Shown here: positions 3,803 through 60,912 of the stretch, piece by piece
Layout: each line of letters opens with the position of its first letter
Position numbering within the stretch: the stretch's first letter is position 1
From: an uncultured Planctomycetaceae bacterium
GTDB taxonomy: Bacteria > Planctomycetota > Planctomycetia > Pirellulales > PALSA-1355
NCBI GenBank assembly: GCA_963715755.1
Contig: OY970273.1
Location: 86,028-150,027, forward strand
Length of the DNA: 64,000 bases
Reading direction: 5' to 3'
The notes under the pieces: model-generated
What the model was told of the DNA's origin: nothing
Seen by the model: the letters and a program-made list of their open reading frames with translations, nothing else
The model's database searches: none
Made by a program: the position numbers and the translations under genes

Positions 3803-3972
3803 CGGACCCGCCGGGGCTGGAGTTGCCGCGGACGAGCCCGTGGGGGCCGTCGCCGCAGCCGGTCCGCGCGCGGAGCCGGAGGGCGAGCAGGAGCCGAGCG
3901 AAGAGCAAAGCGCCGCTGCGCACAGGAGCTGCGCAGCGGCGAATGAGACTGGAAGCCGTCATGGCTTCATTG

Positions 3973-4506
3973 TTACTTGCCCGCCATGCTCTTGTCGAAC
4001 AGGCCGGCGAGTTCCTTTTCGACGGCGCCGATCTGAGCGGCGGTCGCCTTGGGGCCGAGTTGGGCGATCTTCTTGGCCAGCGCCAGCAGTTCCTTCTTCT
4101 CCTTGCTGTCGATGTACATGAAGTCTTCCTTGGTATCGGCGTCCGAGTTGTGCGTGTGCCCGGCCTTCGACAAGCGCTGCCGAATCGCCTGGACCCGCTT
4201 GTCTCCTTCGTTGGCGATGTTGGTCACTTCGGCGGCGGCGGCTTCGAGATGCTTCACTCGGCCGGCGGCATCGCTTTCCGATTTTTTCAGGTGATCCTGA
4301 GCAGCCTGGCAATAGCCACCCAGGATCTCGGCCACCAGGCTGTCTTCCGTGGCGCGGATGGCAATGATGGCGGTGGCCAACTGCTCGTAGGCGGCGGCAC
4401 CGGCGGCGGCTCGATCGGAGAGCGTTTCGCTCGGCGTGTCGGCAGCCGTCGCCGCGGCTGCCGTTGAACTGACAATGAGCACCAGGGCGGCCAAAGTTTT
4501 GCGCAT
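3973..4506 (-). CDS. secreted hypothetical protein
   Basis: ATG at 4506, signal peptide MRKTLAALVLIVSSTAAAATAA, helical Ala/Glu/Lys-rich body. Confidence 0.5.
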   Translation of the reverse strand: MRKTLAALVLIVSSTAAAATAADTPSETLSDRAAAGAAAYEQLATAIIAIRATEDSLVAEILGGYCQAAQDHLKKSESDAAGRVKHLEAAAAEVTNIANEGDKRVQAIRQRLSKAGHTHNSDADTKEDFMYIDSKEKKELLALAKKIAQLGPKATAAQIGAVEKELAGLFDKSMAGK

Positions 4507-4704
4507 GGTTCGTACTCCGGACAGGGAAAGGGGTGTAGACGGGAGGCGCGAAAGGTATACCGCACTTGAATGCAACCAACAAGCCGCCGGCGGACGCAAG
4601 GCCGTCGAAGCGCCGGCTGCATGCGCGACGCAACCGACCGCCACGAGGCGGATCGAGGCCCGGCGGCGAATCCCGATGTTTTTTGCAATAACCGTTCGTT
4701 TTTC

Positions 4705-4733
4705 TTGACAGCCAGACGCAAGCTGGCTAAACT
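4705..4733 (+). promoter_or_regulatory. sigma70-like promoter candidate (TTGACA-N17-TAAACT)
   Basis: tcTTGACAgccagacgcaagctggcTAAACTcg read directly; ~80 nt upstream of the ORF starting 4815. Confidence 0.3.
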
Positions 4734-4814
4734 CGACCGAGTGCCCCGCAATGGGGGCGGGACCGGGTTGCGCGAAAAACGCGAAGATTGCCGATTATTT
4801 AGCGGCGTTTGAGC

Positions 4815-5216
4815 ATGTTTGCCCGCAGATTCCAACTGATTGTCCTGGTGCTCTTCGTCGTTCTGGCGATTGGGCTGGGGACGCGCCGCGCGAGCGCTTC
4901 GTGCGGCGATTACGTGATGATCGGCGGGCATCATGCCGCCGACCACGCAGCGCCGGCGGCACCGGATGCGCCCTCGAAAGGCCCCGCCCGCGAGCAGGTG
5001 CCCTGTCCCTGCCGGGGTGCCGAGTGTTCGCGTTTGCCGGCATCGCCATCGGCACCGGCACCCGTCCGCGTCGAGCCGGGGCGCGAGAACCTGCTGGGCG
5101 CTAGTCCCATGCAGCCTGGCGCGACGCGCGGCCGCGAGAGCCTGTGCCTCGAACCGGCAAGACTCGCTTTGAGATTCTCTCCGGCGGATATCTTCCGCCC
5201 ACCGCAGTCGGCCTGA
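4815..5216 (+). CDS. hypothetical small secreted Cys/His-containing protein
   Basis: MFARRFQLIVLVLFVVLAIGLG signal/TM then HHAADH and CPCRGAEC motifs; compositionally weak, low support. Confidence 0.25.
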   Translation: MFARRFQLIVLVLFVVLAIGLGTRRASASCGDYVMIGGHHAADHAAPAAPDAPSKGPAREQVPCPCRGAECSRLPASPSAPAPVRVEPGRENLLGASPMQPGATRGRESLCLEPARLALRFSPADIFRPPQSA

Positions 5217-5504
5217 CAGGCCGGCGGATGGTCCGCTCCTGCGCTTGATCGTCGGCGATCGACGACGCGCGCGTTTGCAGCCCTGCTGGCCGAAAGCGTG
5301 CTGCTGCGGCTTGGGTTCTTGTAGTCTCCTGGCGGATGATGCGCCCTGTGGCGCGGCAGTCCGCCCGAGCGAATCCCAGTCGACCGGCAGCGCCTGACCG
5401 AGGGTGAATGCGTGCGCAGCGAGCGCGTCCCGTGGCGGACGGCCGTCTGGCGCGGGAACTGACCCAATTCATTTGCAATCTCAATTCGCGGAGATATACC
5501 GACC

Positions 5505-5774
5505 ATGAAATGCGGAAAATACGGCTATCGAACGGCGGAAAGCGGCCGGGGTCTCGTGCCCGATCCGGCAGAACAGCGCACTCTGGCCTTCGTGCGCCAA
5601 TTGCGGCAAGAAGGCAAACCGTACAAGCAAATCGCGCTGGAGCTGAAGCGGCGGGACATTTTGACCCGCACCGGCCGCACCTGGACCGAGAGGAATTTGA
5701 TCAGCTTGCTGAACAATTCCTTGATCAATGTTTCCTGGCAGATGCCGGAGTATTCGCCGGCGGCCTGTTCCTGA
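5505..5774 (+). pseudogene. remnant of a large serine recombinase (internal Recombinase-domain fragment only)
   Basis: GKYGYRTAESGRGLVPDPAEQRTLAFVRQLRQEGKPYKQIALELKRRDILTRTGRTWTERNLISLLNN matches the Recombinase domain that follows the resolvase catalytic domain; no catalytic N-terminal domain upstream; local G+C clearly lower than flanks. Confidence 0.55.
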
Positions 5775-6019: not shown

Positions 6020-6615
6020 GTGGAATTGAATCGCCGCAAGCGAAAACCCAAGCCGGTGATCGGCTGGCGTGAGTGGCTGTCGCTCTCGGTGCCGGGTATT
6101 CCCGCGATCAAGGCCAAGGTCGACACCGGGGCCCGGAGTTCGGCCTTGCACGCTTTCGACGTGGAGATCTTCTCGCGCGAGGGCGCGAGATGGTCCGCTT
6201 CAAGGTGCACCCCTTCCAGCGCGACAAGACCCACGCGCTGGAATGCGTGGCCGAACTGTACGATCGGCGGACCGTGCGCAGCTCGGCCGGGCACGAAAGC
6301 ATCCGGCCGGTGATCCTGGCCCAGGTCGAGCTGGGGGGCCAAGAGTGGCAGATCGAGCTGACGCTCACTCGCCGCGACGCGATGGGCTTTCGCATGCTAC
6401 TCGGCCGGCAGGCCATCCGCCGGCGCTTCCGGGTCGATCCGGGCCGATCGTACCTGGTCAGTCGAGCCCTGGCCGATCAGGCCAGGCAGCTGCGCCGCGC
6501 GCGACCGGAGACTGCCGGTCCGGCCGGCGGCAATCCGCCCGCTACCCAGCGACCCGATATCCAGCGACCCGATCCCCAGCAGCAGGGGGCCCAGCTGCCG
6601 AGGAATCCCGGATGA
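6020..6615 (+). CDS. RimK-associated retropepsin-like protease (putative ATP-dependent zinc protease family), split by a 1-nt frameshift near 6190
   Basis: frame 2 [58 protein letters not shown] continues in frame 1 as [28 protein letters not shown]...; family normally sits immediately upstream of rimK. Confidence 0.7.
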
Positions 6616-7517: not shown

Positions 7518-7568
7518 GGGGGCCAGGGTCGCTGCTGCGCCGGCCGATCGCCTCGATCTGCCGCCCGC

Positions 7569-9037
<1,469 letters not shown>

Positions 9038-9040
9038 GAT

Positions 9041-11729
9041 TCAGTCCAGAAATACGAATTCGTTCGAGAGCAGGAGCACCTGTGCGAGCCGAGTCCAGGA
9101 ATCCATCGCGGGGGGCAGCGGACCATGGAAGTCGGTCTCGGCGTTCCAATGATCGGTCGGCAGAGCTTGCCCAGCGGCGGCAGCAGGTGCGCCAGCGGCA
9201 GGGGCAAGATGCAGCTTGGGCGCCCAGCGGAACGAGTCGTAATTGTCGTTGGCCCGCGGATCGACGATGAAGTCGATGGTGTCTCCCCGTTCCACCGCGA
9301 CGTTCTCGACATGCGTGTCTTGCCGGTTGTGCGCCACCGTCCAGCGGCCCAGTACGCCGTGCCGACTCGAGCGGGCAATTGCCTCGACGCCATCGCCCTG
9401 GGCATTGCCGTGTTCGGCTACACCGTCGATCGTCACGCTGCCGGCGGCCGGGGCCGTCCAGCGGCGGACCACCGCCTGTGAGACGCCGGGATGCCCGCCC
9501 GTGGCATTGAGCCCGACGTACGACATTTTCGGATCGGGATACTGAGGCCCGAACTGCCAATGGGTGCCGCTGAAATGGGCCAGGTCCGTGTAGCCGGTCA
9601 GCTGGTCGGCGGCCCGATCCCAGGTGCCATAGCCGTACCGCCAGGCGGGCGCCAAAGGGGCCCGAGCCGCCTCGCCGGCCAGGTAATCCTGGGCCAGCTG
9701 CGCTTCATCGGCCGCCGGCATTCGGCCCAGCGCGCCGGTACAGCCGGGCAATCCGCTCGCGCGGCTGTGCCTGCGCGCTCTGCGCGGCCGGCTCCTGAGT
9801 TGCCGCCGCCAGCAAGCGGGCCTGTTCGGCCACGAACCGGCTATTCATCAGGAACAGGGCCTGCTGGGGCACGGTGGTCACGAACCGCTGCGGGCTGTGC
9901 GTGTCGGGCCCGGCAAAATCGAAGGTGCGAAACATGCCCGGCAGGTTTTGCCGTTCGACCAGCCCGTAGATTGTCCGCCGATGCGTGAAGGGCTCGGTCG
10001 CCAGGTCCACTGACGGTCCGCCCAAAGTCAGGTCCAGCGCACCGCTGGCCGATAAGAGCGCGTCGCGCATCGCTTCCAGATCCAGGCGGCGGCGATTCAT
10101 GCGCGACAAGAGCCGGTTTTCCGGATCGCGCTGGTCGGCCAGCCGCTGCCGCTGGGCGTCGGACGTGTCGCTCGACTGTCGATAGGTGCTGGACAGCACG
10201 ATTGCCCGGTGCAGCTTCTTCAGCGACCAGCCGTCGTCGATGAAATGCCGGGCGAGCCAGTCCAGCAGCTCCGGATGCGTCGGAGATTCGCTCCGCAAGC
10301 CGAAATCGCTGGGCGTGCGCACCAGCCCCGCGCCGAAGAATTGCTGCCACACCCGATTGACCAGCACCCGGCCCGTCAGCGGGTTGTCGCGGCCGGCGAT
10401 GGCCTGGGCCAGCTCGAGCCGGCCGCTGCCTTGCGAGAACAGGGCCGCATCGGGACCGGCCAGGCAGGTCAGGAAGCGCCGCGGGGCTTCGTCGCCCTGG
10501 TTGCCCGGGTTGCCGCGAATGAATACCCGCACGTTGTGTGGCTGCGGAGCGTCGGCCATCGACATTACTTCGGCCGGCTCCTTGGGCTCGACCGTGCTGG
10601 CGAAGACGCCATAGAGGGCGTAATAGTCCTTGGCCGAGATGGGATCGAACTTATGATCGTGGCAGCGGGCGCAGGTGACCGTGAGCCCCATCGTCGTGCG
10701 GCAGAGCACGTCGAGCCGATCGTCGATGATGTCGGCCTGGTTGTTGAGAAACCGCCGACCCACGGTCAGAAACCCGAGTGCCGCCAGCGCGCCCGGCTCG
10801 CCGGCCGTGGGCAGCCGGTCGGCGGCAATCTGCCGGATCAGAAACTCGTCGTAGGGCATGTCGTCGTTCAGGGCCTTGACCACCCAATCGCGATATTTGT
10901 ACGCGAACGGGTACTTGCGGTCCTCCATGAAGACGTAGCCCTTGGTGTCGGCATAGCGTGCATAGTCGAGCCAGTGCCGGGCCCAGCGCTCGCCGTAAGC
11001 GGGCGCCGCGAGCAGGCGATCGACGACGCGCTCGAAGGCATCGGGCGCCGTGTCGCGCGCGAATTCGTCGATCTGGTCGGCCGTGGGCGGCAGGCCCAGC
11101 AGGTCGAACGACACCCGCCGCAGCCACACGGCCCGCTCGGCGGGGGCCGCCGGCGCTAGGCCCGCGCTTTCCAGTTTCGCCAGGACGAAGGCGTCGAGCG
11201 GCGCGCGGACCCAGGCGGTTTGCCGGACGGCCGGCGGCGGTGGATCCCGTAGCGGCTGAAAGGCCCAGTGCCGTTTCCAGGTATCCGGATCGGCTGCGGC
11301 CGCGTCGGCCGGCGCCGTGGGCCAGGGGAGCCCCAGCTCGATCCACTGGTTCAGCGCGGCCAGCGCCTCGGCCGGCAGCTTGCCGTCGGGAGGCATCTGC
11401 AGGTTTTCGTCGCCGTAGCCGATCGCCGTGGCCAGCTTGCTGGCGCCCACATTGCCCGGCACGACCACCGGCCCGCCGTCGCCGCCGCGGAGCAGACTGG
11501 CCCGGGAATCGAGCCGGAGGCCGGCTTCCTGCTTTTTCGGGCCGTGGCACTTTTGACAATGCTCGACCAGCACGGGGCGAACCCGGCGCTCGAATAGTTC
11601 CAGGCCCTCGGGCGTGGCCGCCGGCGCCTGGGCGGCATTGGGCGGGCCTGCATTGGGCGGTTCGGCTGCCAGCCGCGCTCCGGTAAGCAAGGCCAGACCC
11701 AGAGCGGCGTTGAGCAGGCGACGATTCAT
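9041..11729 (-). CDS. planctomycete cytochrome-c domain protein PSCyt1-PSCyt2(DUF1549)-PSD1(DUF1553), split by a frameshift near 9725
   Basis: signal MNRRLLNAALGLALLTGA, heme-binding CQKCHGPKKQEAGLRLD, DUF1549/DUF1553 body; C-terminal ~230 aa continue in another frame and end in the family-typical LLLSNEFVFLD; classic partner of the adjacent DUF1501 gene. Confidence 0.8.
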
Positions 11730-16949: not shown

Positions 16950-17723
<774 letters not shown>

Positions 17724-18040
17724 CGGGTCAAGCCGCCGCGGAACTACGAAAAAGAGACTGCCCTCCGGCCGCGCCCCGTCTGCGGTGGCCGGAAATCGGG
17801 CTATATGGCTTCACTCTATGTTGCCTGGGCTAGCTGGTCAACCGACCAAGGGCGGGGGCCCAGCGCCTCGCGTTCCGTTCCTGCTAAGGCGCCAGCCTGG
17901 TGGCACTGCCGCACGTCTCGGCCGGCAATTTCCAGCTTCGCGGATGTTTTGTTTGGCGCAAGCGACGCGATGTGGCCCAAGGCAGTCGGCTGTTCCAGCG
18001 TGAGACAAGTGTTCGGTCATTTAGCCGAATGTCCCATTAC

Positions 18041-18200
18041 ATCTGCGCGTATCTGCGTCCATCCCGTTTATCTGCGTCGATTGAAACTGGTCCGGCTACA
18101 AGCGCGATCGAGCGGTCTGAATTTGGACGGCCCTGCCAAGCGTGAATCCGCGACGATCGAAAAACGCAGATGAACGGGATGGACGCAGATTTTCGCAGAT
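18041..18200. repeat. imperfect inverted repeat: two 36-bp arms (4 mismatches) built from ATCTGCG motifs, 86-bp spacer
   Basis: arm1 18041-18076 atctgcgcgtatctgcgtccatcccgtttatctgcg; reverse complement of 18165-18200 is atctgcgaaaatctgcgtccatcccgttcatctgcg; between hisF 5' end and dinG-like 3' end; local G+C lower. Confidence 0.6.
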
Positions 18201-18267
18201 AGGCGAGCCGGGAAGTTCAAGTTCGCGGTGCCGAGCGCCGTGAGTGACCAATGAGCGGACACCGCCG

Positions 18268-20271
18268 CTACAACTCGAGTTGCTCGGCATCGAATTGATC
18301 TTCATCCGCCGATTCGGTCGAGAGCCGGCAGTCGGGCAGGCTTTCCAGGAATGAGCGGCCGTAGGGCTTGCTGCGCATCCGCGGATCGAGAATCACCACC
18401 AGGCCCCGGTCCCGGGCCGAGCGGATCAGCCGGCCGAAGCCCTGCTTGAGCTTCAGGATCGCCTCGGGCAATTGATAATCGGCAAACGGATTGCCCCCCG
18501 CGGCCCGGATCGCCTCGAGCCGGGCTTCGAGCAGCGGCCGGTCGGGCACGCTGAACGGCAGCTTCGTGATGATCACGTTCTGCAGGGCGTCGCCCGGCAC
18601 GTCCACGCCCTGCCAGAAACTGTCGGTGCCCATCAGCACGCCGCGCGGGTTGGCCTTGAAACGCTCGATCATCGTGCTGCGGGGCACGCCGTCGGCCTGG
18701 CAGTACAGCGCCAGATCGCGCTCGGCCAGCCAACCGGTCAGGCCCGCCGCCACGCGGCGCATCATCTCGTAACTGGTAAACAGCACGAACGCGTGCCCGT
18801 CGGTGCGGCCGGCAAATCGCTCGATCATGTCGATCGTGCGCCGCTGGTAGCGCTGGGTGTCCGAAGGGTCGGGCATGCCGTCGACCAGGATCAACTCGAC
18901 CTGCCGGGCGTAGTCGAAAGGGCTGCCCCAGCGGCGGGCCGTGGCCTGCGTCAGGCCGACCCGGCTCTTGAAGAAATCAAACGAGCCCTGGCGGCCGACG
19001 GTCAGTGTGGCGCTGGTCATAATCACGCTGGGCACCTTGCCGAACAGCTCCTTGCGGAGGGCCGGCCCCACGTCGAGCGGCGCCGCGGCCAGCGTCATGC
19101 GCAACCGGCCGCGCCGGCTGCGCGACGCATCGGCCCAGTAGACGGTGTCGGGCATCTGCTGCGTGCGCCAGGCTTCGAGCTCGGCGGCGAGCCCGGACAG
19201 CCGGTCGGCCGCCGAGATGAGATCCTGGCGCTCGATTTCGCCCAGCTTGCTGGCCGCCGAGCGCAGCAAGCCGGACAGATTCGCCAGGCCCGGGCTGAGC
19301 CGGTTCAGCCCGACGACCGTGCCCGGCGCCCGGGCGCTGGCCTTGCCCTGCCGGGCCAGCCAGGCGTGGGCGTCGGCGAAGAACTCTTCGGCCAGGTGCC
19401 GGCAATGATCGACGCTCCGCTGGGCATCGCCGAGGTGGTGATGGACCAGCAAGCCGCGATTGGTGCGGTCGTTGTAGAGCTTGGAGAGCAGGTAATCGAC
19501 CTGGCCGCTCGAGGCGCTGGCGCCCAGGTGATCGCTGGCCACGGCTTCGAGCGTATGGGCTTCGTCGAAGATCACGGCCCCGTAGTCGGGCAGAATGCTC
19601 ACGCCCTCGCGGCGCAGGGCCAGATCGCTGAAGAACAGGGCATGGTTGACGACCAGCAGCTGGGCGTGCTGCACGCGGCGCCGGGCCGAGTAGTAGAAGC
19701 ATTCCTTGTAGGTCGGACATTTGCGCCCCAGGCAGTTGCCGCTGTCGCTTTGCACTTCGTCCCAGACGGTCGAGAGCGGCTGATGCTCCAGGTCCGTCAG
19801 CGAGCCGTCCTGGGTGTTGCGCGACCAATCGATCACGTCGGCCAGATCGGCAAATTCTTCTTCGCGGTGGAACAGGCTGGCCGCCCGCTCGGCGGCGCCC
19901 TGCATGCGTCGCAAGCTGACATAGTTGTGCCGCCCCTTGACCAGCACGGCCGTGAACTCGCAAGGCATCACGCTGCGCAGCAAGGGTAAGTCCTTGTGGA
20001 TCAGCTGTTCCTGCAGGCTGATCGTATGCGTCGAGATGACGATCCGCTTGGGCAGGGCTTCGCTCGACTCGGCCACCGCCAGGATGGCAGGCACGAGGTA
20101 GGCAAAACTCTTGCCCACGCCGGTACCGGCCTCGGCGATCAGGTGCTGGTGTCCGTTGAGCGCGGCGGCGACCGCATCGGCCATTTCGAGCTGTTCGCGG
20201 CGCTGCTCGTAGTGGTCGAGCCGGGCGGCAATCCGGCCGGTGGGTCCCAGAATTTCGGCGGGCGTGAGCAT
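18268..20271 (-). CDS. DinG/Rad3-family ATP-dependent DNA helicase
   Basis: [16 protein letters not shown] Walker A, DEAHTLE box, Cys cluster region; ATG at 20271 ([10 protein letters not shown]). Confidence 0.8.
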
Positions 20272-20584
20272 GGGGCGGAAGTGTTGCGAAGAGTGAGCCG
20301 CTGGCGTCAAGGTAACATATGCAAGGCCAAAGGCAGACGGCAAAACGCGGAACGACCCGGGCAGAAGGCAGCAGGATGAGACCATCCGAATAACCGGCGG
20401 ACAACGTGCCGCCGGGCGGACGCCGCGCGACGTGGCGATTCGCGCCGCGCGGAAACGGCAAGCCCGCGGGCGTGTGTTTTGCCGTGGGGTCTGCTATTCT
20501 GCCTCGGGCAGCCGGGACACCGGACCGAGAGCCCGCTAAGAAAAACGCGCCGCCGCAGGCGCCCGCCGCACCGCGAGAGAATCT

Positions 20585-21625
20585 ATGCCGATTGAGTTCC
20601 GCTGTACCAAGTGCAGCAAGTTATTGCGCACACCCGACGAAACGGGGGGCAAACAAGCTCGCTGCCCCCAGTGCGGCACGATTCTGGCCATTCCGGTGCC
20701 CGCTGCGGCGCCGGCGACGCCGGCTCCGTCGCCCCCAACTCCCGCTCCCGCGGGTCTGTCCCGTGCTGCGCTGGCGCCGGCCAGTGCGAACCCGTATCAG
20801 TCGTCGACCGTCACGTCGCCGTCAGCCGGTGTGACGCCCGCCGCGGGGTACGGCAAGCTGGACGTCAGCGATGCATTTGCGCGGGCCTGGGCGATCTTCA
20901 AGCCGAACATCGGGCGTTGCATCGGCATCGTGCTGTTGTTTTACCTGTGCTACATGGGATTGTTTCTGCTATTTGGAGCCGCGATCGGCTTTGTCAGTTT
21001 CGCCGTGCGGCCCGGCGCCGGGGGCAATGCCGGCGGAGGCCTGCCGGCGATCTTTGCGGTGGCCGGAGCGTTGTACGTGGTGGCGCTATTGGCGAACATG
21101 TGGTTTTTGGCCGGGCAGACCAATTTCTTTTTGAAGGTGGCGCGGGGCGACAGGGATGCCTCGGTCTCGCTGCTGTTCGGCGGCAGTCGTTGGTTTCTGA
21201 CGGTCTGCGGGGCCGGAATCCTGGTGGCTCTGGCGATTTCCCTCGGTTGGATCCTCTGTATCGTGCCGGGCATCATCGTCGGGCTGATGTTTTCGCAATT
21301 CCTGTTTTCGATCGTCGACCGCGATCTGGGCGTGCTCGAATCGTTGAGCGAATCGCGCCGCATCACGTCGGGCAACAAAGGCATGCTGTTCGTCACATTT
21401 CTGATTCCATCGGTAATCATGATGGCCGCCAGCATCGCGCCCAATCTGGCCCTGCGGCCGCTGCTCGCAGACCACCCGTTTTTCATCATGGGCATTCAAT
21501 TCGGGATCCAGATGGTCGCCACCGTCACGGTATTGCCTTGGTTCTGGGTGTTACTGGCGACGTGCTACCTGATCATGTCGGGGCAGCCCACCGCGGACCG
21601 GAGCTCGAACCAAACATTCGGCTAG
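20585..21625 (+). CDS. membrane protein with N-terminal zinc ribbon and Pro/Ala-rich linker
   Basis: CTKCSKL...CPQCGT zinc ribbon, PAPSPPTPAP linker, 5-6 TM helices. Confidence 0.6.
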   Translation: MPIEFRCTKCSKLLRTPDETGGKQARCPQCGTILAIPVPAAAPATPAPSPPTPAPAGLSRAALAPASANPYQSSTVTSPSAGVTPAAGYGKLDVSDAFARAWAIFKPNIGRCIGIVLLFYLCYMGLFLLFGAAIGFVSFAVRPGAGGNAGGGLPAIFAVAGALYVVALLANMWFLAGQTNFFLKVARGDRDASVSLLFGGSRWFLTVCGAGILVALAISLGWILCIVPGIIVGLMFSQFLFSIVDRDLGVLESLSESRRITSGNKGMLFVTFLIPSVIMMAASIAPNLALRPLLADHPFFIMGIQFGIQMVATVTVLPWFWVLLATCYLIMSGQPTADRSSNQTFG

Positions 21626-21717
21626 TGAACCGGGTTGGCGTCCAGGCGATTGAACGCTGCCGGTGGGCCTGGGCGAGTGAATGACCGGCCCGTTTTCGCC
21701 CCTTCGGGGCGAAGCCG

Positions 21718-22560
21718 CTACCGCCCCTTCGGGGCGATCAGGTCCGTTTCCGGACTGCTGGCCGTGGCATAGAGCTTCTTGGGAATCCGGCCGGCCAGCC
21801 AGGCCAGGCGCCCGGCCGTGATCCCGGCTTTCATGGCCAGGGCCATGGACAGCGGATCGCCGGCGTGGGCAATGCCCGTGTTGAGCAGCACGCCGTCGAC
21901 CCCCAACTCCATGGCTGCGGTGACGTCGCTGGCCGTGCCCACCCCCGCATCGACGATGACCGGATAGTCCGGATCGCCGTCCTTGAGGTACTCGAGGCAG
22001 ATGCGGATGTTGTTGGGGTTGAGGATTCCCTGGCCCGAGCCGATCGGGCTGCCGGCCGGCATGACGCTGGCGGCGCCGGCTTGTTTGAGCCGCCGGGCGA
22101 CGATCGGATCGTCGCTCGTGTAGCACAGGACCTGGAAACCTTCGGCCACGAGTTTCTCGGTGGCGGCGATCGTGGCGACGGGGTCAGGCAGCAGAGTCTT
22201 GGTGTCGGCCAGCACCTCGAGCTTGACCCAGTCGGCGCCGGGATTTTCCAGGCCGAGCAGAATTTCGCGTCCCAGCCGGGCCACGCGAATTGCGTCGTCG
22301 GCCGAAAAGCAGCCGGCCGTGTTGGGCAGCAGCGTGTAACGGCTGGTGTCGAGGTAGTCCAGGATGTTCTGCCCCTGGGCGTTGACCAGGCGCTCGCGGC
22401 GGACGGCCACGGTGATGCAATCGGTGCCGCTCAGCGCAAGCGCCTCGGCCATCAGCTCGTAGCTGGCGTATTTGCCCGTGCCTACGATCAGCCGGCTGGC
22501 CAGCGTATGCGTGCCGATTTGCAGCTTGTCGCCCACTTGCACGTCCGTCGCCACGCTCAT
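21718..22560 (-). CDS. thiG: thiazole synthase ThiG
   Basis: ATG 22560 preceded by GGAGGAGG; [19 protein letters not shown]...[13 protein letters not shown]...[13 protein letters not shown] conserved ThiG core; overlaps thiS stop (ATGA). Confidence 0.9.
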
Positions 22561-22763
22561 CCTCCTCCGACCAGCGTCACCACTTCGACCTTGTCCCCTG
22601 GTGCGAGCTCGTGCTGGGCATGCCGGGCACGGGGCACCAATTCCAAATTCACTTCGACGGCCACTTGCCGCGCGTCGAGCTCGAGCTCGGCCAGCAGCGC
22701 GGCCACACTGGTGCCTGGGCACGCTTCACAGGGCTTGCCGTTGACCGAGATTTCCACGCCCAT
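22557..22763 (-). CDS. thiS: sulfur carrier protein ThiS
   Basis: 68 aa [13 protein letters not shown]... ending in GG; translationally coupled to thiG. Confidence 0.75.
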
Positions 22764-23087
22764 TCGCCAGCCGCAGGTTTGAAAACAGTTGCCGAGCCCC
22801 GGCATTGTAGAAGTGCCCTGCGCGGCCGGTCAAGGATCGACTAAATGTCGGCCGGGCCGGTGTGATCTAACGCGATCCTGGCAAAGTGTGCTCCCGGAGG
22901 CGTGATCCGCACATCGCCGGCACGACGAGAACGGCGGAGATCCTCGTGCCCGCCGCGTGCCGGATTCGATGCCGAGCCGGGAAAAGCTTACAATGGCTGG
23001 AGCGAATAGCTGCTGGGGACCGGCCGCTGTCGGATGCCGGCCGGTTACGCGACCCCCGCTGCCGGCTGCCTGAGCGTCAAGCGATCT

Positions 23088-24227
23088 ATGTCGACCAAAG
23101 CCAGCGTGGACAATCCGTTCTCCTGCCCGCATTGCGGCACGCTGGAGCCGCGATTTGCCAGCCGGGCCGGATTGCCGGTTTCCTGCCCGGGGTGCGGCCG
23201 GCAATTCGTGGCGGGGGTTCCCAGCCTGGCAACTCCCAACGTGCTGGCTGCCGGCTCCGAATCGGCCGACGAATCCGACACGTACGAGCTCGAGCCGCCG
23301 GTCGCCCGTCCGCCCGCGCCGGTGTTCACCGATGAAGAGTTGGCTCCGCCCGAACCGCGCAAGCCGGCGGCGACGCGCGAGGTGTCGCTGGAGCCGGTCG
23401 GCTACGATTCGCACGCGGCGCGCGAGCAGCGGCTGCATCGGTTTCATCACGAGCCCGACGAGCCGCCCAAGGTGGTCTTTCTGTCGGGGGTGTTCGATTT
23501 TCCGCTGCGCTCGGGAGTCTGGCAGCGCTGGCTGTCGATGTCGTTTTCGCTGCTGGTCCTGGGCCAGATCGGAATCCCCTGCCTGCGGCTGCTCGGCGTG
23601 CTCGACGATTCGGCGGCTTCCGGCGCCATGATCCTGGGCCTGGTAATGGGCTTGCCGACGCTGTTGATCACGTTGATCGGCGGCGGCTATGTTTCGGCCT
23701 GCCTGCTGGCCGTGGTCGAAGACACGGCCAACGGTTGCGATCAGGTGCAAGAGTGGCCCGAGTCCGACTGGCGCGATTGGGCCTTTACGCTGCGCCTGCC
23801 GCTGATGGCGGCCTTGGGCTCGTTTGCCGCCGGCAGCTTGTTTAGTTGGCTCGCCGGCCAGTGGAACCTGGCGGCCGACCTGGCCGCGCTCGTCGTCTTT
23901 CCGGTCCTGATCCTATCGATGCTGGAAAGCGGGGCGGCGCTCGCACCGATCAGCGCCGCAATCCTGAGCACCTGCCTCCGCTTCTGGTGGGTCTGGGCGA
24001 TCTTCTATGCCGAGACCGGTCTGGCGCTCATTGCCGTGGCCTGGCTGCTGCGCTGGATCGCAGGTCAATCCCTGAGCGTGGCGCTCCTTTGCGGCGCTCC
24101 GCCACTGGTGTATTTCATGCTGGTCTACGCGCGGCTGTTGGGCCGCCTGGCCTGGTACACCGGTTGGGACGAACAAGAGGAGTCCGACGATGACGAAGAG
24201 TTGTCCGCTGGCGACCTGCCGGCCTGA
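23088..24227 (+). CDS. membrane protein with N-terminal zinc ribbon (second such gene flanking thiSG)
   Basis: CPHCGT...CPGCGRQF zinc ribbon, acidic/Pro linker, multi-TM C-terminal half, acidic tail. Confidence 0.55.
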   Translation: MSTKASVDNPFSCPHCGTLEPRFASRAGLPVSCPGCGRQFVAGVPSLATPNVLAAGSESADESDTYELEPPVARPPAPVFTDEELAPPEPRKPAATREVSLEPVGYDSHAAREQRLHRFHHEPDEPPKVVFLSGVFDFPLRSGVWQRWLSMSFSLLVLGQIGIPCLRLLGVLDDSAASGAMILGLVMGLPTLLITLIGGGYVSACLLAVVEDTANGCDQVQEWPESDWRDWAFTLRLPLMAALGSFAAGSLFSWLAGQWNLAADLAALVVFPVLILSMLESGAALAPISAAILSTCLRFWWVWAIFYAETGLALIAVAWLLRWIAGQSLSVALLCGAPPLVYFMLVYARLLGRLAWYTGWDEQEESDDDEELSAGDLPA

Positions 24228-24272
24228 CCAATCGCCTGTTGCCACGTGCGACGCGAGCCACCCCGAGGGCCT

Positions 24273-25409: not shown

Positions 25410-25711
25410 GGCCGTTGCAGCCAGTAGTTCGGCTCGCGGCTGCAGTGCGTCACGGCAACTACCAAGATTTCATTTTCCAGCACCTCAAAGACTACCGCGT
25501 AACGCAATTTGTCCAATAACGCGCGGCGGTAGGGCTGGTCGGCCGGGAGGGTCTCAAGTTTGGGAAAACTGAGCGGGCGGGAGACGATGGTGTCAAACGC
25601 CCGCTCAAGTTCGACGAGCAAGGCGGCACCGGCCGACGCGGATTGGTCGTTCAGGTACCGTCGCGCAGCTTCGACCTCAGCCTCGGCCTCGGGAAGGATA
25701 CGGAGGATCAC
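25403..25711 (-). CDS. type II toxin, ParE/RelE family
   Basis: 102 aa ...YRRALLDKLRYAVVFEVLENEILVVAVTHCSREPNYW; overlaps antitoxin stop by 4 nt. Confidence 0.8.
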   Translation of the reverse strand: MILRILPEAEAEVEAARRYLNDQSASAGAALLVELERAFDTIVSRPLSFPKLETLPADQPYRRALLDKLRYAVVFEVLENEILVVAVTHCSREPNYWLQRPQ

Positions 25712-25956: not shown

Positions 25957-26128
25957 GGTCGACTCCTCGCTGGCTGATAGTTCCAATTTTCGCATCGTGG
26001 GGTCCAAAAGTCGAGAGTATTGCCTGTCCGGGTGACGGCCGCACGATAATTGACACCCCACCGCGAACGGTGAGACAATACCGCGCCTGGATTTCATCTC
26101 TCCGCGGCGGCTTTGCCGGACGACGGCC

Positions 26129-30154: not shown

Positions 30155-30180
30155 GCCGCCGCCGGACTTGCCGTTGCCAG

Positions 30181-30336: not shown

Positions 30337-30376
30337 TCAAGTGGGCCCTATGGGACCGACCCATTGGCCGCCGGCG

Positions 30377-37678: not shown

Positions 37679-37679
37679 C

Positions 37680-41958: not shown

Positions 41959-43867
41959 TCAAGGCGCCAGTTTCGCGTCGGGAGCCTGAGCCTGTGCGGG
42001 CGGGCTCGCCGCAGCTTGCGGCTGCCACTGCTGGCTGGCAATGCTCTGCAAGCGGCACGATTCAAGCGAGAAGTCGGTCCCCGGCGTCATCCCGATGCAT
42101 TCGTCGAGGATTCCGCCGTCGTCGGTTCCGTCGTTTCCGACGCTGTAGAGCAGGTAGCCCTCGGCATCGGCGCGGTAAACGAGGGCCTGGCCGCTGAATG
42201 GATCGAGGGGAACTTCGTTGAGCCATGCCGGCACGAGCGTTTGCAGCGACGTGGGAAAATTGCCCTCGTCGCGCCGATAGCCGTGAATTGCCAGCTCGGT
42301 GCGGACGAGACGGAGCAGAGCCAGCCCGCGATTGTCGGCTGCGATCAGGGCGTCTCCAAACGGCGCCTTGCCTGACGCGACGTCCTCCAACCGACGATGC
42401 AGCCTGCCAGACCAACCGTTGGCCGTCATGTCCCACGCGTACTCGCGCGAGAACGTCGCCAGGCCGTTCACGATCGCGTTCTGCCGCCGCGAGCGCGGCG
42501 TCGAGCCGGCGTGATTGCTCGCGGCCGAGGGTGGGTGCCAGGTCGGCGAATACGTCCAGCGCGACGGATTCCAGCGCCGTGCCGATAAGTCGATGGAACA
42601 ACATGCCGCCTCGCAGCCCGCGGCTCCCCGCTCGAAAACAATCGAGCCCCGCCGACACGGCCTCCGCGGGATCGTCTCTTTCGGCGGCCGCCCGCGACTG
42701 CAGGACGAACGCCCTTGCCAGCTCGCGCAGGCGCATGGCGCCCGCGATGCCGGGAAACGGTTCATGGTAATCGACCACGACTGCGCAGGGCCCCGCAAGA
42801 ATGTCGTGTGCCGCGGCCAGCCGGTTCGCGTTCAGCAGGGCAAAACTCTGGCACACAGCCGGCGTCGCCACATCGAGATCCTGGCTCGGCAGCGCGCTCC
42901 AATCCAGTCGTCCCGCGAGTGCGTCGAGCCGGGCTTCATTCTCACCGCCCGGCAGGTCAGCCGGAAGCGCCACCGGCATCACGAGCTGCCACCAAAGCCA
43001 GCCGACGGATCCGGCCAGCGGCACGAGCAGGGCCACGAGCGCCACCCGCTGGGCGATCAACCGGAAGGGCACTCGGCGCGGAGTTGCTGCCGTTTCGCCG
43101 TGGGCCTGCGCGCCATCCGCCACGGGCGATTGGCTGCCGAGCCACCACAGTCCCAACCAGACCATTTCCGCCAGTCCCAGCAAGAACGCCGCGGCTGTTA
43201 ACGTTCTGGGCCAGGAGTATTCGCTTTGCACGGCGAACGTGCCAATCATGATCGGCGGCGTCTCGCAGCATGCCTTATAAAATCCCGCAACCAGCCCGCC
43301 CAAGAGCAGCGTGCCAATGAGGGCGACGGCGCACCGCACGCACCCGATGGCGAAGCGGTGGCCCCGGCGGCGAGCAACCTCCGAAAGTAATTTGGTGTGT
43401 GGGACATCAATGGCCCAGATCGCCAGGCAAGTCACCAGCCCGGCAGCCACGCCGATCAGCGCCCACAACGCTCCGTTCGCTTCCCCTCGCCAGTCGGCCG
43501 CCAGACGCCGACTGGCCAGGATTGCCAGGACAAAGGCAAAAATTGGAACGGCGAGCAAGCCGTCGCCGAGCGAGAACTGCCATGCTGCGAGCCCCGTCTG
43601 CTCGCTTCCAGCGCGCAATGCGGCGCGGCGCTTTAGCTGCCACCAGACAATGCGCAACTCGGCCGTCGTGCTGAACTGGGCGATAAACAGGAGCGTTGGC
43701 CCGAGGGCGCCTGTTTGGGCCACGAAGGCGATCCAGGCAACCAGCGGCAGCGTCCGCCAAAACCAGTGCCACGGGCGAGTGAGAACACCGAGGGCCAACA
43801 GCGCCGCCAGAAAAACGGCCGCCAGGCCGATCAGGGCGCCAAGCTGATCCCATTCGTCCATAGCCAT
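41959..43867 (-). CDS. polytopic membrane protein with periplasmic domain ending in a T2SS-pseudopilin (GspG)-like C-terminal motif; split by a frameshift near 42450
   Basis: N-terminal frame MAMDEWDQLGALIGLAAVFLAALL... with ~8 TM helices; C-terminal frame ...LQTLVPAWLNEVPLDPFSGQALVYRADAEGYLLYSVGNDGTDDGG resembles DPWGxxYxY...YxLxSxGxDGxxGG. Confidence 0.5.
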
Positions 43868-46085: not shown

Positions 46086-47357
46086 ATGCTCGACGTCGAA
46101 CTGCAAGTCGCCGAATCCGTGCCCGACGCGTTGTTGCCCAATGCGTCCCCGCCCGATGCGCCCCCGCCCAATGCGTTCGCAGGCGACCTGTGCGTGCCGG
46201 CGGATGCCTCGCGGCTGAGCGTCAGCCGGCTGGATTCGCTTGACGCGCTTGCGTACTGGGCCGCTGCCTGGAACCGGTTGTCCGGCGACGTGCCGTTCCG
46301 CTCCTACGAATGGGCCAGCTGCTGGTGGCGGCACTACGCGCCGGCCCACGGCGAGCTCTTCGTGCTGGCCGTCCAAGATGACCGACAGAAACTGGTCGGG
46401 CTGGCTCCCTGGTATCGCTCGCGGTCGGCGGGCTGGGGCCAGACCTTGCAGCTCTTGGGTAGCGGCGAGGTGTGCTCGGATTATCTTTCGCTGATTTGCC
46501 GCGAACAGGATGCCCGGGGCGTGAGCGCGGCCTTGGCCGAGTATCTCACGGGCAAAGCGCGGCGTCGCTGGCACGTGTTGGACATGCCGGCGATCGACGC
46601 GGCCGATGCTGCCCTGGGACATCTGCGCGAGCAGCTCGCGCTGCGGGGTCATGCGGTCGATTGCCGCAACGAAGCCCGCTGCTGGCGCCTGGCTTTGCCG
46701 GCGACGTGGAGCGAATTTCTGGCTGGATATTCGAAGTCGCGCCGCGATCGGATCCGGTACTTGTTGCGCCGGCACGTCGAGTCGGGCAAGGTGAAGCTGC
46801 TGCGCGCGGTCGATGGCGAGTCGCTGGAGCGGGCGTTCGGCATTTTCGTCGAACTGCATCAAAAGCGGCGGGCCATGCTGGGGCAGCCGGGTTGCTTTGC
46901 CTCGGCCCGGTTCGAGGCTTTTCACCGCGAAGTGGCTCGGCAGTTTCTCGATTCGGGCCGGCTGCGGCTGGTGTGGCTGGAGTTCGAGGGGCGGCCGCTG
47001 GCGGTGGAGTACGGCTTCGTCGGCGCCGGCACCGTGTATTACTACCAGGGCGGGTTCGAGCCCGAGCTGGCCGACTTCTGCCCCGGCACGCTGATGCAGG
47101 CCGTTTCGCTGCAAGCGGCCATCGCCGAAGGCCACCGGCAGTTCGACTTCCTCCGCGGCGACGAGCCGTACAAGCTGCAGTGGAACGCCCAGAGCGTGCC
47201 GCTGGCGAGTTTGCGGATTGCCGGCGGCAGTCCCGCGGCGCGGGTGCGGCATTCGGCCTGGCAGACGCGCGAGTCGGTCAAGCATTGGATTCGCCAGCGC
47301 TGGTCGCAGCGCGCCGGACAAGCGCCGCCGCCAGCCCGGGAAGAGTCGCACGCATGA
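46086..47357 (+). CDS. FemAB/CelD-like GNAT acyltransferase (Acetyltransf_6-like)
   Basis: ...RRWHVLDMPAID..., LEFEGRPLAVEYGFVGAGTVYYYQGGFEPE, FDFLRGDEPYKLQW. Confidence 0.7.
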   Translation: MLDVELQVAESVPDALLPNASPPDAPPPNAFAGDLCVPADASRLSVSRLDSLDALAYWAAAWNRLSGDVPFRSYEWASCWWRHYAPAHGELFVLAVQDDRQKLVGLAPWYRSRSAGWGQTLQLLGSGEVCSDYLSLICREQDARGVSAALAEYLTGKARRRWHVLDMPAIDAADAALGHLREQLALRGHAVDCRNEARCWRLALPATWSEFLAGYSKSRRDRIRYLLRRHVESGKVKLLRAVDGESLERAFGIFVELHQKRRAMLGQPGCFASARFEAFHREVARQFLDSGRLRLVWLEFEGRPLAVEYGFVGAGTVYYYQGGFEPELADFCPGTLMQAVSLQAAIAEGHRQFDFLRGDEPYKLQWNAQSVPLASLRIAGGSPAARVRHSAWQTRESVKHWIRQRWSQRAGQAPPPAREESHA

Positions 47358-48378
47358 AATTCCTGTCGCAATGCGCGGGCGGCGCCCTGGATTTCCCCAA
47401 ACGGCTGGCCCTGAACCTGTATTACTGCGCCAGCTGGCCGTATCGCAGCGGCTACAACCGCGAATTGGCGCGGGCCGGCCGGGCGCCGGTGATGGTGCTG
47501 TTCTACCACCGCATCGCCGACACGTATCCGAACTCCTGGACCGCTTCGAATCGCACGTTTCGCCGGCAGATTTCCTGGCTGAAACGGAATTTCGAAATGG
47601 TCTCGCTGGCCGAAGCCCAGCGCCGGCTGGTCAGCGGCTACAACGAGCGGCCCTGCGTCAGCATCACGTTCGACGACGGCTACGCCGAGAATTGCCAGCA
47701 CGCCTTGCCGCTCTTGCGCGCGAGCGAATTCCCTGCACGTACTTCGTGACCAGCCGCAACGTGATCGACCGGCGGCCGTTTCCGCACGACGTCGAGCGCG
47801 GCGGCCCGCTGGAGCCCAACACGCCGGAACAGATCAAGGCCCTGGCCGACGCCGGCATCGAGATCGGCTGCCACACCCGAAACCATGTCGACCTGGGCAC
47901 GCTGGCCGACCCGGACGACCTGCACGACGAGATCGTCGTCGCCCGGGCGGAACTGGAGCAGCTGGTCGGCGGGCCGGTGCGTTACTTCGCCTTTCCCTAT
48001 GGGCATCACGTGAACATGTCGCGCGCGGCCGTGGCCGTGGCCCGCGATTGCGGTTTTAAAGGGATCTGTTCGGCCTTCGGCGGATTCAACTTTCCCGGCG
48101 ACGATGCTTTTCACCTGCAGCGCATCCACGCCGACGCCGACCTGATCCGGCTGAAGAACTGGCTGACGGTCGATCCGCGCAAACTGCAGGAGTCGCGGCA
48201 ATTCGCCGCGGCCACGCAGGCCCTGCTGCAGCCGGCGGCGGAGGCAGGCTATGCCGATCGCCGCGCCGCGGACTCCGGCCGAGGCTTGCCCGGCAGCGCG
48301 GGATTTGCGACCGACACGCGTGCGGCCCAGCCGCTGGATTGGCCCGGCTCACTCGTTCTAGAAGGCCCGAACCGATGA
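47354..48378 (+). CDS. polysaccharide deacetylase (NodB homology), split by a 1-nt frameshift near 47728
   Basis: frame A ...VSITFDDGYAENCQHALPLLRASEFPARTS* ; frame B continues ...RERIPCTYFVTSRNVIDRRPFPHDVERGGP...GIEIGCHTRNHVDL. Confidence 0.75.
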
Positions 48379-51309: not shown

Positions 51310-52135
51310 CTACTGCTGCGGCGCTGACGAGCCGCGGGTCGGCTTCTTGGCCGCGGCGGCTTGGGCCAGCGACTCGGCATGACTGAGCAATTCGTCGCGC
51401 TCCGGTCCGGTGGCTCGCCGGGCCGCCTGCTGATAATACAGCCGGGCCACCGATGCCTTGCCACTGTGTTCGGCCTCGCGCGCGCTGGACCAGGGCCTGC
51501 GTCTCGTGCTCCAAGGCCTCGTGCGCGGCCTGGGCCTGCCGGGCCCGCAGTTGGCGCAGCTCGGCCACGCTCAGCGCCGAACTGGCCGATGCATCGGCGG
51601 CGGCCGCCGGGTTGGGTTTGCCGCCAGAGGCGGGCGGGTCGCTCGCCGAGCCGGTATGGCGGGGCGACCGCGGTACAGCCGGGCCCCCCTCCTGCAGCTG
51701 TTGCCAACGCTCGAGCGCCGGGGTCATTGGCGGACCCTGGCTGACGACAAACGGCGTTTGCGTCGTGTCGGAGAAGCCGGCCGTCGTGCCGTTCATCATT
51801 GTGGTGCTCACCGTCTGCGACGTCTGGCTCTGCCGGCTGCCCTGGCTGGCGGTGATGTTGAAGTAGGCCATGCCGCCGGGAACGGAGAGCGCGAAGCCGG
51901 TTGTCGCGCCGGCATTGGGCGTGGCGCCGCCGAACTGCGGAGCCGCCAGCGGTGCACCGTTTTGCTGGAAGTGGAAGCCGCCGATATTGACGTTGAAGCC
52001 GACGCCGATCTGCTCGAAGAAATTGCTGTTGCCGGTATTGAACGGCGTGGTCACGGTCGCGTGCTGCGCCGCGGCCAGCTGAGCCAGCGCGGTCCAGCAA
52101 ACCAGCGATCCCCAGAGCGATAATCGCGTGCCCAT
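51310..52135 (-). CDS. secreted hypothetical Gly/Thr/Asn-rich protein, apparent frameshift near 51480
   Basis: ATG 52135 preceded by AGGAGG; signal MGTRLSLWGSLVCWTALAQLAAAQHA; tail ...ARLYYQQAARRATGPERDELLSHAESLAQAAAAKKP...* is in a different frame from the body. Confidence 0.45.
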
Positions 52136-54137: not shown

Positions 54138-54626
54138 GGCGCCCCGGCGCAGGGTACTTTTCTTTACAGTTGACGACGCCGGGACTAGACTTCAGCTAGT
54201 TCGCGCCACGCCTCCGGCATTTCCCGTCTTTTCTCGAAGGGAGGTGGCTTATCGCGTAATCTGCTCGCTTCGCGGCACGTGCAGTCATTCGCCTGCCGGC
54301 CGAACTTGCAAGCTGCCCTCGCGCCTGGCTAATTCGCGTTCTCATACTTTTCTTTCCTTCGCGCAGCGCGCGAGGCCCGTTGCAGGGTTCTCTCGGGCGA
54401 CGAATTCTCTGTCCGCCAGCCGCCAACCGAAGTGGTCTGGTCCGTGCGGGTGTCTTGCGCGGTGCCCGACCGCCTACTGCGCTTGCGCCCCCATTTGCCG
54501 CCCGGCCGGGCTCGGCTCGTTTCGCGGTCCGCGCCTAGTTTCGCCTGCGGTGGGGCAGCGGGCCGGAGGGCAAGCAGCATTCGTCCCATTTCCATCCCTG
54601 TTCGCCTACAGGCCACGAGGTGCCGC

Positions 54627-58672: not shown

Positions 58673-58737
58673 GGCGTTGGGGGCCGGCAGGGCGCCGGCT
58701 GGGGTGCATGCAGGACACGGACGGCGCCATCCGTTAA

Positions 58738-58761
58738 GCCCACGGGCGGCGGCCCGTGGGC
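58738..58761. terminator. perfect 10-bp-stem hairpin (gcccacgggc-ggcg-gcccgtgggc) between convergent genes; member of a repeated TTAAGCCCACGGG element
   Basis: read directly; 66 nt after the acylase stop, 50 nt before the hydrolase gene 3' end; near-identical element at 62094-62118. Confidence 0.55.
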
Positions 58762-58810
58762 ACGTGCCGCGCGCGAAATCTAATTCTCGGGCCGGTTCCG
58801 CCAAGCCTCG

Positions 58811-60912
58811 CTACGGCTTTGGAGCGGGCTGGAACTGCCAGCTCTCGTCGAAGAACCCGGCCGTGGCGATGCCCCCCGGCGCACGCGCGGTGACCGGCAC
58901 ACGAATGTCGATCACGGCGTAATCGGGCAGCTTGGGCACTTGCCGGGCGTTGTTCAAATAGTCGTACTCGCGGAACGTGAAGCCGGAGTTGACGACTACG
59001 TAGCGCTCGGGGTTCAGCGGGTTCGGATAAACCAGCACCGGCACATGATCGGTGGCGGAAAACTTCTCGCCGCCGGATTCGATGCCGCCGGCGGTCCAGC
59101 GGATCGGCAGCCGGTCGGCGATCTTGGCCAGCACAGAATTGCTCGATGGATCACCCCAGAGAATCAGGTTGTGCTGGGCGGTGTCGGCCTCGGTGATGTC
59201 TTTGTCGGCCTTCACTCGGGCATCGCCGCGGAATTGCCGCCGCCAGTGCTCGATGGCGTGTTTCATTTCGCCGGCCGTCCAGCGGCCGACTGGTTCATTG
59301 AGTGCCGCGCCCGAGGGCTGCACCATCAGAAAACTGTCCATAAAGGCGTCGTCGATCGGGCCTTGCAGGCCGGGCCGCTTGGTCAGCGGGGCCGACTCGG
59401 CCTTAGGCTCGGGCGCCAATTGCCAACGGCCGCCAACCTTGGCCAGCCGGGCCACCCAAGAGCGGTCGGACAGCGGCTGCGGGGCTTCGAACGCGACGCC
59501 ATCGATTTCGATCACCGGCTTTTTCAGAATGTCGAGCGGGCATTCGCCGGCCGCAAACCGCAGGGTCAGTCCGGTGACGTTGTCGGTCTTCACCACCACG
59601 TCGACCGACTGGCCATGCATTAGCCGGGCTTCAACTCGGGCGCGGTTCCAATGCTGGCCCAGCCCGTCCAGTTCGAGCCACAAGCAGCGGTTGTAGCGGA
59701 GGGTAAAGGTCGTGAAGCAGATCTGCTCCGGCACGCGATTGCGGCCCTGTTCGGCCAGGCGATCGATTCGGGCGTTGATCTCTTCCTTGGCCGCCGGCGT
59801 GTAGTTGTGCTCGGCGCCAGAGCCGATGATGTGGACCAGCCGGATGCCGACGGCGGCCAGCGCCTGTTCCATTTGATCGGCGGCTTGTTTCTGCCGGTCC
59901 TTCTGGCCGCTATAGGCCACGGTCGGACAGTTGAACAAGTTAAGCGCGTAATCCGTGGCGTCGTACAGATGCCAAAGCTTGCGCTCGTACCAGGTGGGCG
60001 TGAGCGTCTCGCCCTGGAACGTCTTGAGGAAGTCGGCCGTCTCTGAGAATCCGGCTCCCGGCGCCGCCGCGGCCCACGTGCCGGGATAGTGCGTGGCGAA
60101 TTGCCAGGAGGCGGCGCCCCCCATCGAGAAACCCCGCATCACCAGCCGGTCCTGGTCGATCGGGTAATGCCGGCGACGTGGTCGAGCGCCTCGAACAAAT
60201 CGATCTCGCCGGCGAACTTGTTGGCGTTGCAGTAGCGGCCGTAGGGATGCAGGACGAATGCGCCCGGCGGCAGAAACTCGCCCGGCGACGACTGCCGGCC
60301 GGTGATGAAATTGACCTCGCTCAACGTCTCGCCCCGGCCGTGGCACCAGACGTCGAGCCGGAACCGGTGCGGCGTGCGCGGCTGGTACGTCGCCGGCACG
60401 ACCAGCCCATACGGCTGCACCGAGCCGTCGATCTTCGAGCGGTAGCCGCGCACGACCAGCCCGGTGGCCGCCTGCCAGGGAGCCTCGCCGGCCCGCAGTT
60501 GCCGAGCCCGCTCCAGGCCTTGCTTGAGCAGGTTTTGGGCTGCCGCCAACTCCCGGGCATCGAAGAACTCGTTGTAGGCGAGCGCGTAATGCACGGCCTG
60601 GCGATAAATTTCGACGTCGGGCAGCAGTTCCAGGAGGTCGGGCCGGTTCTGAAGCGCTTCGGGCAGGGCCGCGATCGCTTTTTGCAATTCGTCCAGCCCG
60701 GCCTGCAATTCGGCCCGATCGGCGGCCGCCAGGGCGATTCCCGGCGGCGGAATCGGCCGGACAGTGTCGGTCACGTTGTCTTTCGGGCCATCGGCCCGGA
60801 GCAGGGTACCGCTGAGGACAGCAGCGCCCCAGAGCACAGAGCCCCATAACACGGGGCCCCATAACACAGGGCCCCAAAACACGGTGAGCCAGGCCAGTGG
60901 GCGGTGCGTCAT
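58811..60912 (-). CDS. secreted alpha/beta-hydrolase (prolyl-oligopeptidase/esterase-like) with C-terminal extra domain; 1-nt deletion in a C-run near 60165
   Basis: signal MTHRPLAWLTVFWGPVLWGPVLWG..., N-terminal frame ends ...LFEALDHVA, second frame continues RHYPIDQDRLVMRGFSMGGAASW (GxSxG elbow); gtcgccggcattac would read through as gtcgcccggcattac. Confidence 0.7.

Follow-up and report, generated by a model that had tools for sequence, protein, structure and literature searches.

The DNA analysed here, called the window throughout, is a stretch of 64,000 nucleotides (nt) from an uncultured Planctomycetaceae bacterium (assembly GCA_963715755.1, contig OY970273.1, positions 86,028 to 150,027 of the forward strand). 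It has a G+C content of 66% and a planctomycete-like gene content, including a DUF1501/PSCyt-PSD1 gene pair, a lipoprotein of the ASPIC/UnbV FG-GAP type and an N_methyl/SBP_bac_10 protein. Eight of its ~55 genes are interrupted by small shifts of the reading frame, and these breaks are the subject of this study. An original prediction, made from the letters of the sequence, had described them as single-nucleotide frameshifts in conserved genes and had preferred to read them as assembly indels of the homopolymer type. All eight interruptions were confirmed by split Pfam profiles, by a codon-usage model and by comparison with a relative of the same species, and the list proved to be complete for the window. 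As judged from these sequence comparisons, the breaks very probably are consensus indel errors of an error-prone long-read metagenome assembly, although they are not of the homopolymer type.

Results

At this G+C content plain lists of open reading frames (ORFs) were uninformative, and coding frames were tracked by the G+C content of third codon positions (GC3) and by a codon-usage hidden Markov model (HMM) that was trained on 20 long ORFs and run over the whole window. GC3 phase in 120-nt windows was too noisy for single indels and was replaced by reasoning from ORFs, Pfam matches and homologs together with the HMM, while greedy tracking of the best frame by tblastn was confounded by antisense and off-frame matches in the high-GC DNA. 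The HMM placed same-strand frame switches without a stop or start boundary at 8856, ~9737, ~42482, 47734, 51476 and 60164. It also marked 6185 as the start of coding sequence and the opening codons of the CRTAC1-like gene as anomalous, and it found no further breaks anywhere in the window.

As a reference from the same species we used contig_13731 of ENA ERZ25039529 (loci L001, L162 and L163), which shares ~96% nucleotide identity with the window; more distant loci were compared as well. In a genome scan with the GT1 protein the nearest public genomes, among the matches listed, were uncultured Planctomycetia metagenome-assembled genomes (MAGs), and none of the matches listed exceeded ~80% amino acid identity. 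A metagenome scan with RimK gave matches of at most 80% identity, in which the RimB-like gene is intact and could serve for comparison.

Each break lies within ~30 nt of the position originally given for it, the first of them at 3930 and not at ~3950. This one affects the CRTAC1/ASPIC-UnbV lipoprotein gene (2171-3962, minus strand; Pfam FG-GAP_3 and UnbV_ASPIC), which lacks 2 nt at 3929/3930. Compared to L001 the missing letters are TG on the plus strand, that is, the CA of GCACAG on the coding strand. The lipoprotein signal and the body of the gene are thereby in another frame than the ATG at 3962 (MTASS...); L001 carries the two nucleotides, which join that ATG to the LGSC lipobox signal. 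The RimB-like Zn_protease gene upstream of rimK (6020-6615, plus strand; PF05618) has lost 1 nt at ~6183-6189 (GGGCGCGAG), and its Pfam profile is split over two frames, with profile positions 1-46 in one and 42-135 in the other. In the DUF1501 gene (7569-9037, minus strand) a single G is missing at 8856, where, immediately before CGCGAG as read on the plus strand, the window has GG and the relative GGG, and the signal region is cut off from the domain. Its partner, the PSCyt1-PSCyt2-PSD1 (DUF1549/DUF1553) gene (9041-11729, minus strand), has gained one T at 9721 that L001 does not have.

Two genes have each lost one CG unit. In a multi-pass membrane protein gene with a weakly T2SSG-like C-terminal part (41959-43867, minus strand) the 2-nt deletion at ~42443-42450 took a unit of CTCGCGCGCGAG that is retained in L162, and the P0002 protein of the relative runs uninterrupted across the junction (...PGDVLAREYAWDMTANGW..., ...VLAREYAWD...). 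In the gene of a secreted protein of unknown function (signal peptide MGTRLSLWGSLVCWTALA...; 51310-52135, minus strand) the 2-nt deletion lies at ~51476-51481, and L162 again has the CG. Between these two genes, the NodB-type polysaccharide deacetylase gene (47354-48378, plus strand; PF01522) lacks 1 nt at ~47718-47724 (TTGCGCGCGAG), its profile being divided into positions 4-35 and 22-122 in different frames. The last break is a 1-nt deletion at ~60166-60176 in a Peptidase_S9-type alpha/beta hydrolase gene with a GFSMGG nucleophile elbow (58811-60912, minus strand). It falls within CACGT-CGCCGG and not, as had been thought, in a CCC run; in the relative the corresponding protein P0123 is intact with 700 amino acids (...DHARRHYPID...). 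The same gene shows in-frame 15-nt differences in repeat copy number: the signal region has one LWGPV unit more in the window (60877-60891), and the relative has one GGIEC unit more (~59076).

Five of the eight lesions are thus 1-nt changes (four deletions and one insertion), for which the description as single-nucleotide frameshifts was correct, and the other three are 2-nt deletions; 7/8 are deletions. None of the breaks is at a homopolymer longer than 3 nt.

An edit of 1-2 nt per site restores a single ORF at all eight sites. The repaired products have 597 (CRTAC1), 198 (RimB-like), 489 (DUF1501), 895 (PSCyt1/PSCyt2/PSD1), 636 (membrane protein), 341 (NodB), 275 (secreted protein) and 700 amino acids (hydrolase), the last being the same length as in the relative. 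The repaired RimB-like protein gives one Zn_protease match (1-135/138, 123 bits) and the repaired NodB protein one Polysacc_deac_1 match (4-122/124, 95.6 bits). In the repaired PSD1 protein the domain match covers positions 1-243 of 244, where it had ended at 227 before, and the C-terminus now reads ...LLLSNEFVFLD.

The comparison with close relatives that the original prediction had called for gave a divided answer. The relative contig_13731 is intact at six of the eight sites (3930, 8856, 9721, 42443, 51476 and 60176) and shares the remaining two, at ~6186 and ~47722. At the same time it carries its own, different 1-2 nt indels in many genes that are intact in the window, among others in both T2SSE ATPases, an amidohydrolase, CdsA, GT1 and a polysaccharide-synthesis protein, and it also has indels of its own in CRTAC1 (three), DUF1501 and PSD1. 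In some of its genes the indels relative to the window add up to zero: +1, +1 and -2 in the amidohydrolase, -2, +1 and +1 in a lactamase-domain gene, +1 and -1 in a GNAT gene, and +1 and -1 in MgtC. Such ORFs remain open and only their inner stretches are garbled, so gene callers would miss errors of this kind. In more distant relatives none of the eight breaks was present wherever a comparison was possible. The RimB-like gene is in a single frame in all 54 other metagenome loci and the NodB gene in one frame across the junction in ~70 loci. Full-length homologs of the hydrolase number more than 100, and its gene is continuous in loci L002 and L003; the secreted-protein ORF is unbroken in L002.

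If the interrupted genes had been inactive for some time, the parts behind the breaks should have drifted. We compared the window to contig_13731 (synonymous divergence, dS, ~0.1) and determined the ratio of non-synonymous to synonymous rates (dN/dS) 3' of the breaks. The ratio is 0.021 for DUF1501, 0.027 for CRTAC1, 0.099 for the C-terminal part of PSD1, 0.108 for the hydrolase and 0.157 for the second part of the Zn_protease, and 0.25-0.53 for the downstream stretches of the faster-evolving NodB, secreted and membrane proteins. Intact genes range from 0.01 to 0.24 between the two sequences. Pooled over the downstream stretches, pN/pS is 0.145, which differs from neutrality with p = 2e-42, whereas the same stretches read in the frame that a true shift would impose give a ratio above 1.5. 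Relaxed selection, with dN/dS nearing 1, was hence not seen in the disrupted genes between window and relative. Nor did the window contain nonsense codons, truncations, larger deletions or insertion sequence (IS) insertions, since for the other genes neither the HMM path nor the Pfam coverage shows a gap; the only lesions are indels of 1-2 nt.

These data bear on the possibility that all eight breaks are real and very recent frameshifts, marking incipient pseudogenisation in, for example, a mismatch-repair-deficient or strongly bottlenecked lineage. The breaks do stand in the sequence as given, and slippage in short repeats is a real mode of mutation. However, with purifying selection after every break, a real event could only have happened very recently. 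With 8 of ~55 genes affected and a relative that is broken to an equal degree but differently, many independent events would be needed in each lineage, and nonsense mutations and larger lesions should not be missing. We therefore consider this explanation quite improbable, all the more since frameshifts track the sequencing technology across 80 loci (see below).

The two breaks shared with the relative need to be considered separately. It might be possible that six breaks are errors of the window while those at 6186 and 47722 were inherited as real lesions or belong to genes that are split by nature. Two contigs that were assembled separately have the same DNA at both sites, and exactly at the 6186 junction stands an ATG preceded by GAGGG, where the gene caller of the relative starts a 146-amino-acid ORF. 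On the other hand, both downstream parts show an excess of synonymous changes: 18/35 and 4/13 of the changes are non-synonymous compared to 75% expected under neutrality (pooled p = 1.2e-5). Neutrality since divergence is thus rejected for the two sites taken together, which argues against old inactivating mutations; an ancestral inactivating lesion would not predict this excess. A natural split, in turn, would leave the DTGA active-site segment detached from the remainder of the 138-residue domain in the one case and the TFDDG motif of NodB detached from its His motif in the other, and none of the 54 (RimB-like) and ~70 (NodB) other loci is split. Both shared sites moreover have the same GCGCGAG context as three of the breaks that are found in the window only. 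Altogether such a mixed origin seems unlikely, though it carries more weight than any of the other alternatives.

The surroundings of the GT1 gene allowed a comparison across sequencing technologies. By tblastn, 16 repaired or intact proteins of the window were compared to 80 loci around this gene. The 16 loci from Microflora Danica (MFD) MAGs contained 25 frameshifts in 38,690 aligned amino acids and the 64 other loci, all of them non-MFD records, contained none in 95,749 (p = 3e-14). The window itself has 4 breaks in the 7,161 amino acids of the syntenic block against 0 in the 95,749 amino acids of the 64 non-MFD loci (p = 2e-5), well in excess of the background, and its rate in this block, 0.56 per 1000 amino acids, is close to the 0.65 of the MFD loci. 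Microflora Danica MAGs are nanopore-only: they were assembled with Flye (nano-hq) and given a single Medaka round and no short-read polishing (PMC12313526). At coverages under about 40x, consensus indels in nanopore assemblies are a documented source of frameshifted gene calls (PMC9262707). The closest relatives of the window are Flye-style 'contig_N' or Microflora Danica nanopore assemblies, and by this kinship the window is probably a nanopore-type assembly as well. In two of the Microflora Danica MAGs the NodB gene has separate frameshifts ~20 nt apart in one very GC-rich stretch (GCGCGGGCCGGCCGGGCGCC; L002 7420-7440 and L003 7405-7425), which suggests context-dependent hot spots of error. 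The equivalent N-terminal region of NodB in the window (~47470-47500) is intact.

The breaks also share a sequence context. Five of the eight lie on the heptamer GCGCGAG (at 6183-6189, 8857-8863, 42442-42451, 47718-47724 and 51475-51481), which has 41 occurrences in the window (binomial p = 5.6e-8; 3.9e-4 after Bonferroni correction), and four of the 13 occurrences of CGCGCGAG are break sites. The heptamer as such is not over-represented in the whole window, where 55.6 copies would be expected from shuffled sequence. In form the breaks are contractions of short CG-rich repeats, for example of a (CG)n unit or of a GG/CC beside CGCGAG. Losses of a CG/GC unit are also frequent among the relative's own errors (3865, 44276, 43612, 41028 and 53614), and next to the GCGCGAG at 54368-54374 a base (54367) is missing from the relative and not from the window. 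A literature search on GCGCGAG, CTCGCGC and CGCGAG returned nothing relevant. Taken as a sequence pattern, the deletions in CG-rich repeats suggest a context-dependent, possibly modification-related bias of basecalling or polishing and not random noise.

Could the motif instead be a signal for programmed recoding, by ribosomal frameshifting or transcriptional slippage? One heptamer common to five breaks and the conservation of two breaks in the relative would fit such a signal. However, the shifts required vary from site to site, as the restored frames correspond to 1-nt deletions, 2-nt deletions and a 1-nt insertion, and the motif at 8856 lies on the strand opposite to the coding strand. An antisense motif and unequal shift sizes point to a process at the level of DNA or reads and away from translational recoding. 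In addition, the junctions have no slippery X XXY YYZ heptamer, homopolymer or A/T run, the orthologs in all other genomes are unsplit and at six of the sites even the same-species relative lacks the break. Recoding can hence be given next to no probability. A real process at the DNA level would be a sequence-targeted indel mechanism acting at GCGCGAG or (CG)nAG sites, for instance a modification- or nuclease-linked mutational hotspot by which short repeats of this kind are contracted again and again in the lineage. Such a process would account for the position of five of eight breaks, the two shared ones among them, on one heptamer, but we regard it as very improbable.

Some features of the window lie outside these breaks. 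Four further positions, 22560 (ThiS/ThiG), 25741 (ParE/antitoxin), 32915 (Band_7 and its neighbour) and 38642, were considered as additional frameshifts and turned out to be ordinary gene boundaries. The ParE toxin (102 amino acids) and the 'addiction module component' antitoxin upstream of it (140 amino acids) form a type II toxin-antitoxin pair at 25403-26130 (minus strand), overlapping by ATGA and located between a methionine-synthase-like gene and the gene of a 1341-amino-acid NPCBM protein. A break at 5424, suggested by a 242-amino-acid minus-strand gene call in the relative (window 4720-5447), was rejected as well; the call looks spurious, the region being non-coding except for an 89-amino-acid gene. 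The ~1.5 kb between 4508 and 6019 are mostly non-coding, with only this helix-turn-helix-like ORF (5505-5774), which is conserved in contig_13731. The two same-species sequences also differ in content. Between the leucine-rich repeat (LRR) and CRTAC1-like genes the relative has ~870 bp of lower coding potential (L001 4670-5541) that are absent from the window (2169-2176), with a weak 16-nt inverted repeat at the edges and no clear gene. Conversely, window 17529-31974 is ~5 kb longer than the corresponding record positions 223,295-232,756 of contig_13731. This excess is likely a strain-specific segment, possibly including the 1341-amino-acid NPCBM/F5_F8 type C protein (26129-30154).

Discussion

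We favour assembly error as the explanation of the eight breaks because minimal edits repair every gene, six of the breaks are absent from the relative, purifying selection continues downstream and frameshifts in the genomic neighbourhood are found only in nanopore-only MAGs. Error of this kind, as the original prediction had proposed, is therefore well supported, and it is highly likely that the interruptions arose in the consensus. Its homopolymer character did not hold up: there is no run longer than 3 nt, the affected sites are CG-rich repeats and 5/8 lie on GCGCGAG. The source of the sequence would most probably be a nanopore-only MAG of the Microflora Danica type on a single 7.08-Mb contig, and the genes would be intact in the organism. 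The two shared breaks would then be one and the same error, arising again where the sequence context is alike.

Three observations weigh against this explanation. The DNA at ~6186 and ~47722 is identical in the independently assembled contig_13731, which random error does not predict and which requires a systematic, context-driven error. The relative has retained (CG)n units that the window has lost, so that any such bias is not deterministic. Finally, CGCGAG is not visibly enriched at the frameshift sites of Microflora Danica MAGs from other species.

If the breaks are artefacts, the restored sequence expected at 6186 is GGCGGCGAG/GGCGCCGAG and at 47722 CGCCGCGAG. The breaks would then not be a biological feature and would imply no new biology; their value lies in quality control. 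If the rate of the window applied to the whole 7.08-Mb contig, gene calling would yield fragments or pseudogenes in place of several hundred genes. The genes hit here include both members of the DUF1501/PSD1 pair and the deacetylase of an exopolysaccharide cluster, and split calls of this kind would introduce errors into reconstructions of metabolism, counts of pseudogenes and protein databases. Truncated products of the window (P0001, P0041 and P0124) are already present in a public protein collection. The context of CG repeats and GCGCGAG would serve as a usable flag for frameshift-aware correction of high-GC long-read MAGs, and it indicates that residual assembly errors extend beyond homopolymers.

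How do the breaks compare with systems that are known to produce split genes? Pseudogene-rich reductive genomes, such as those of Mycobacterium leprae and of recent host-restricted symbionts, have nonsense mutations, deletions, IS expansion and relaxed dN/dS in addition to frameshifts. The window resembles them in having many conserved genes frameshifted, but their other lesions and their relaxed dN/dS are not seen here. Genes with programmed frameshifts (prfB with +1, dnaX with -1 and the IS3-family transposases) have sites that are conserved in orthologs, defined slippery sequences and one direction of shift. Two family-consistent frames that abut without a stop or start are common to them and to the genes described here, whereas this conservation, the slippery site and the single direction are not found in the window.

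Modification-induced errors of nanopore basecalling (Lohde et al. 2024, PMC11610573; PMC11610603) have in common with the breaks described here that they concentrate on one short motif and come back at the same position when the species is assembled independently. The published cases are reported to be mainly substitutions; here we find indels, and the relative kept several motif sites intact. The greatest similarity is with consensus indels in nanopore-only assemblies (Sereika et al. 2022, PMC9262707; MFD-LR MAG catalogue, PMC12313526). The classic sites of such indels are long homopolymers, whereas the runs here are at most 3 nt and the sites are CG repeats and GCGCGAG, in a window whose technology is deduced from its relatives. 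Common to both is that the indels are of 1-2 nt, are mostly deletions, split conserved genes, are absent from short-read assemblies of relatives and occur at a comparable rate.

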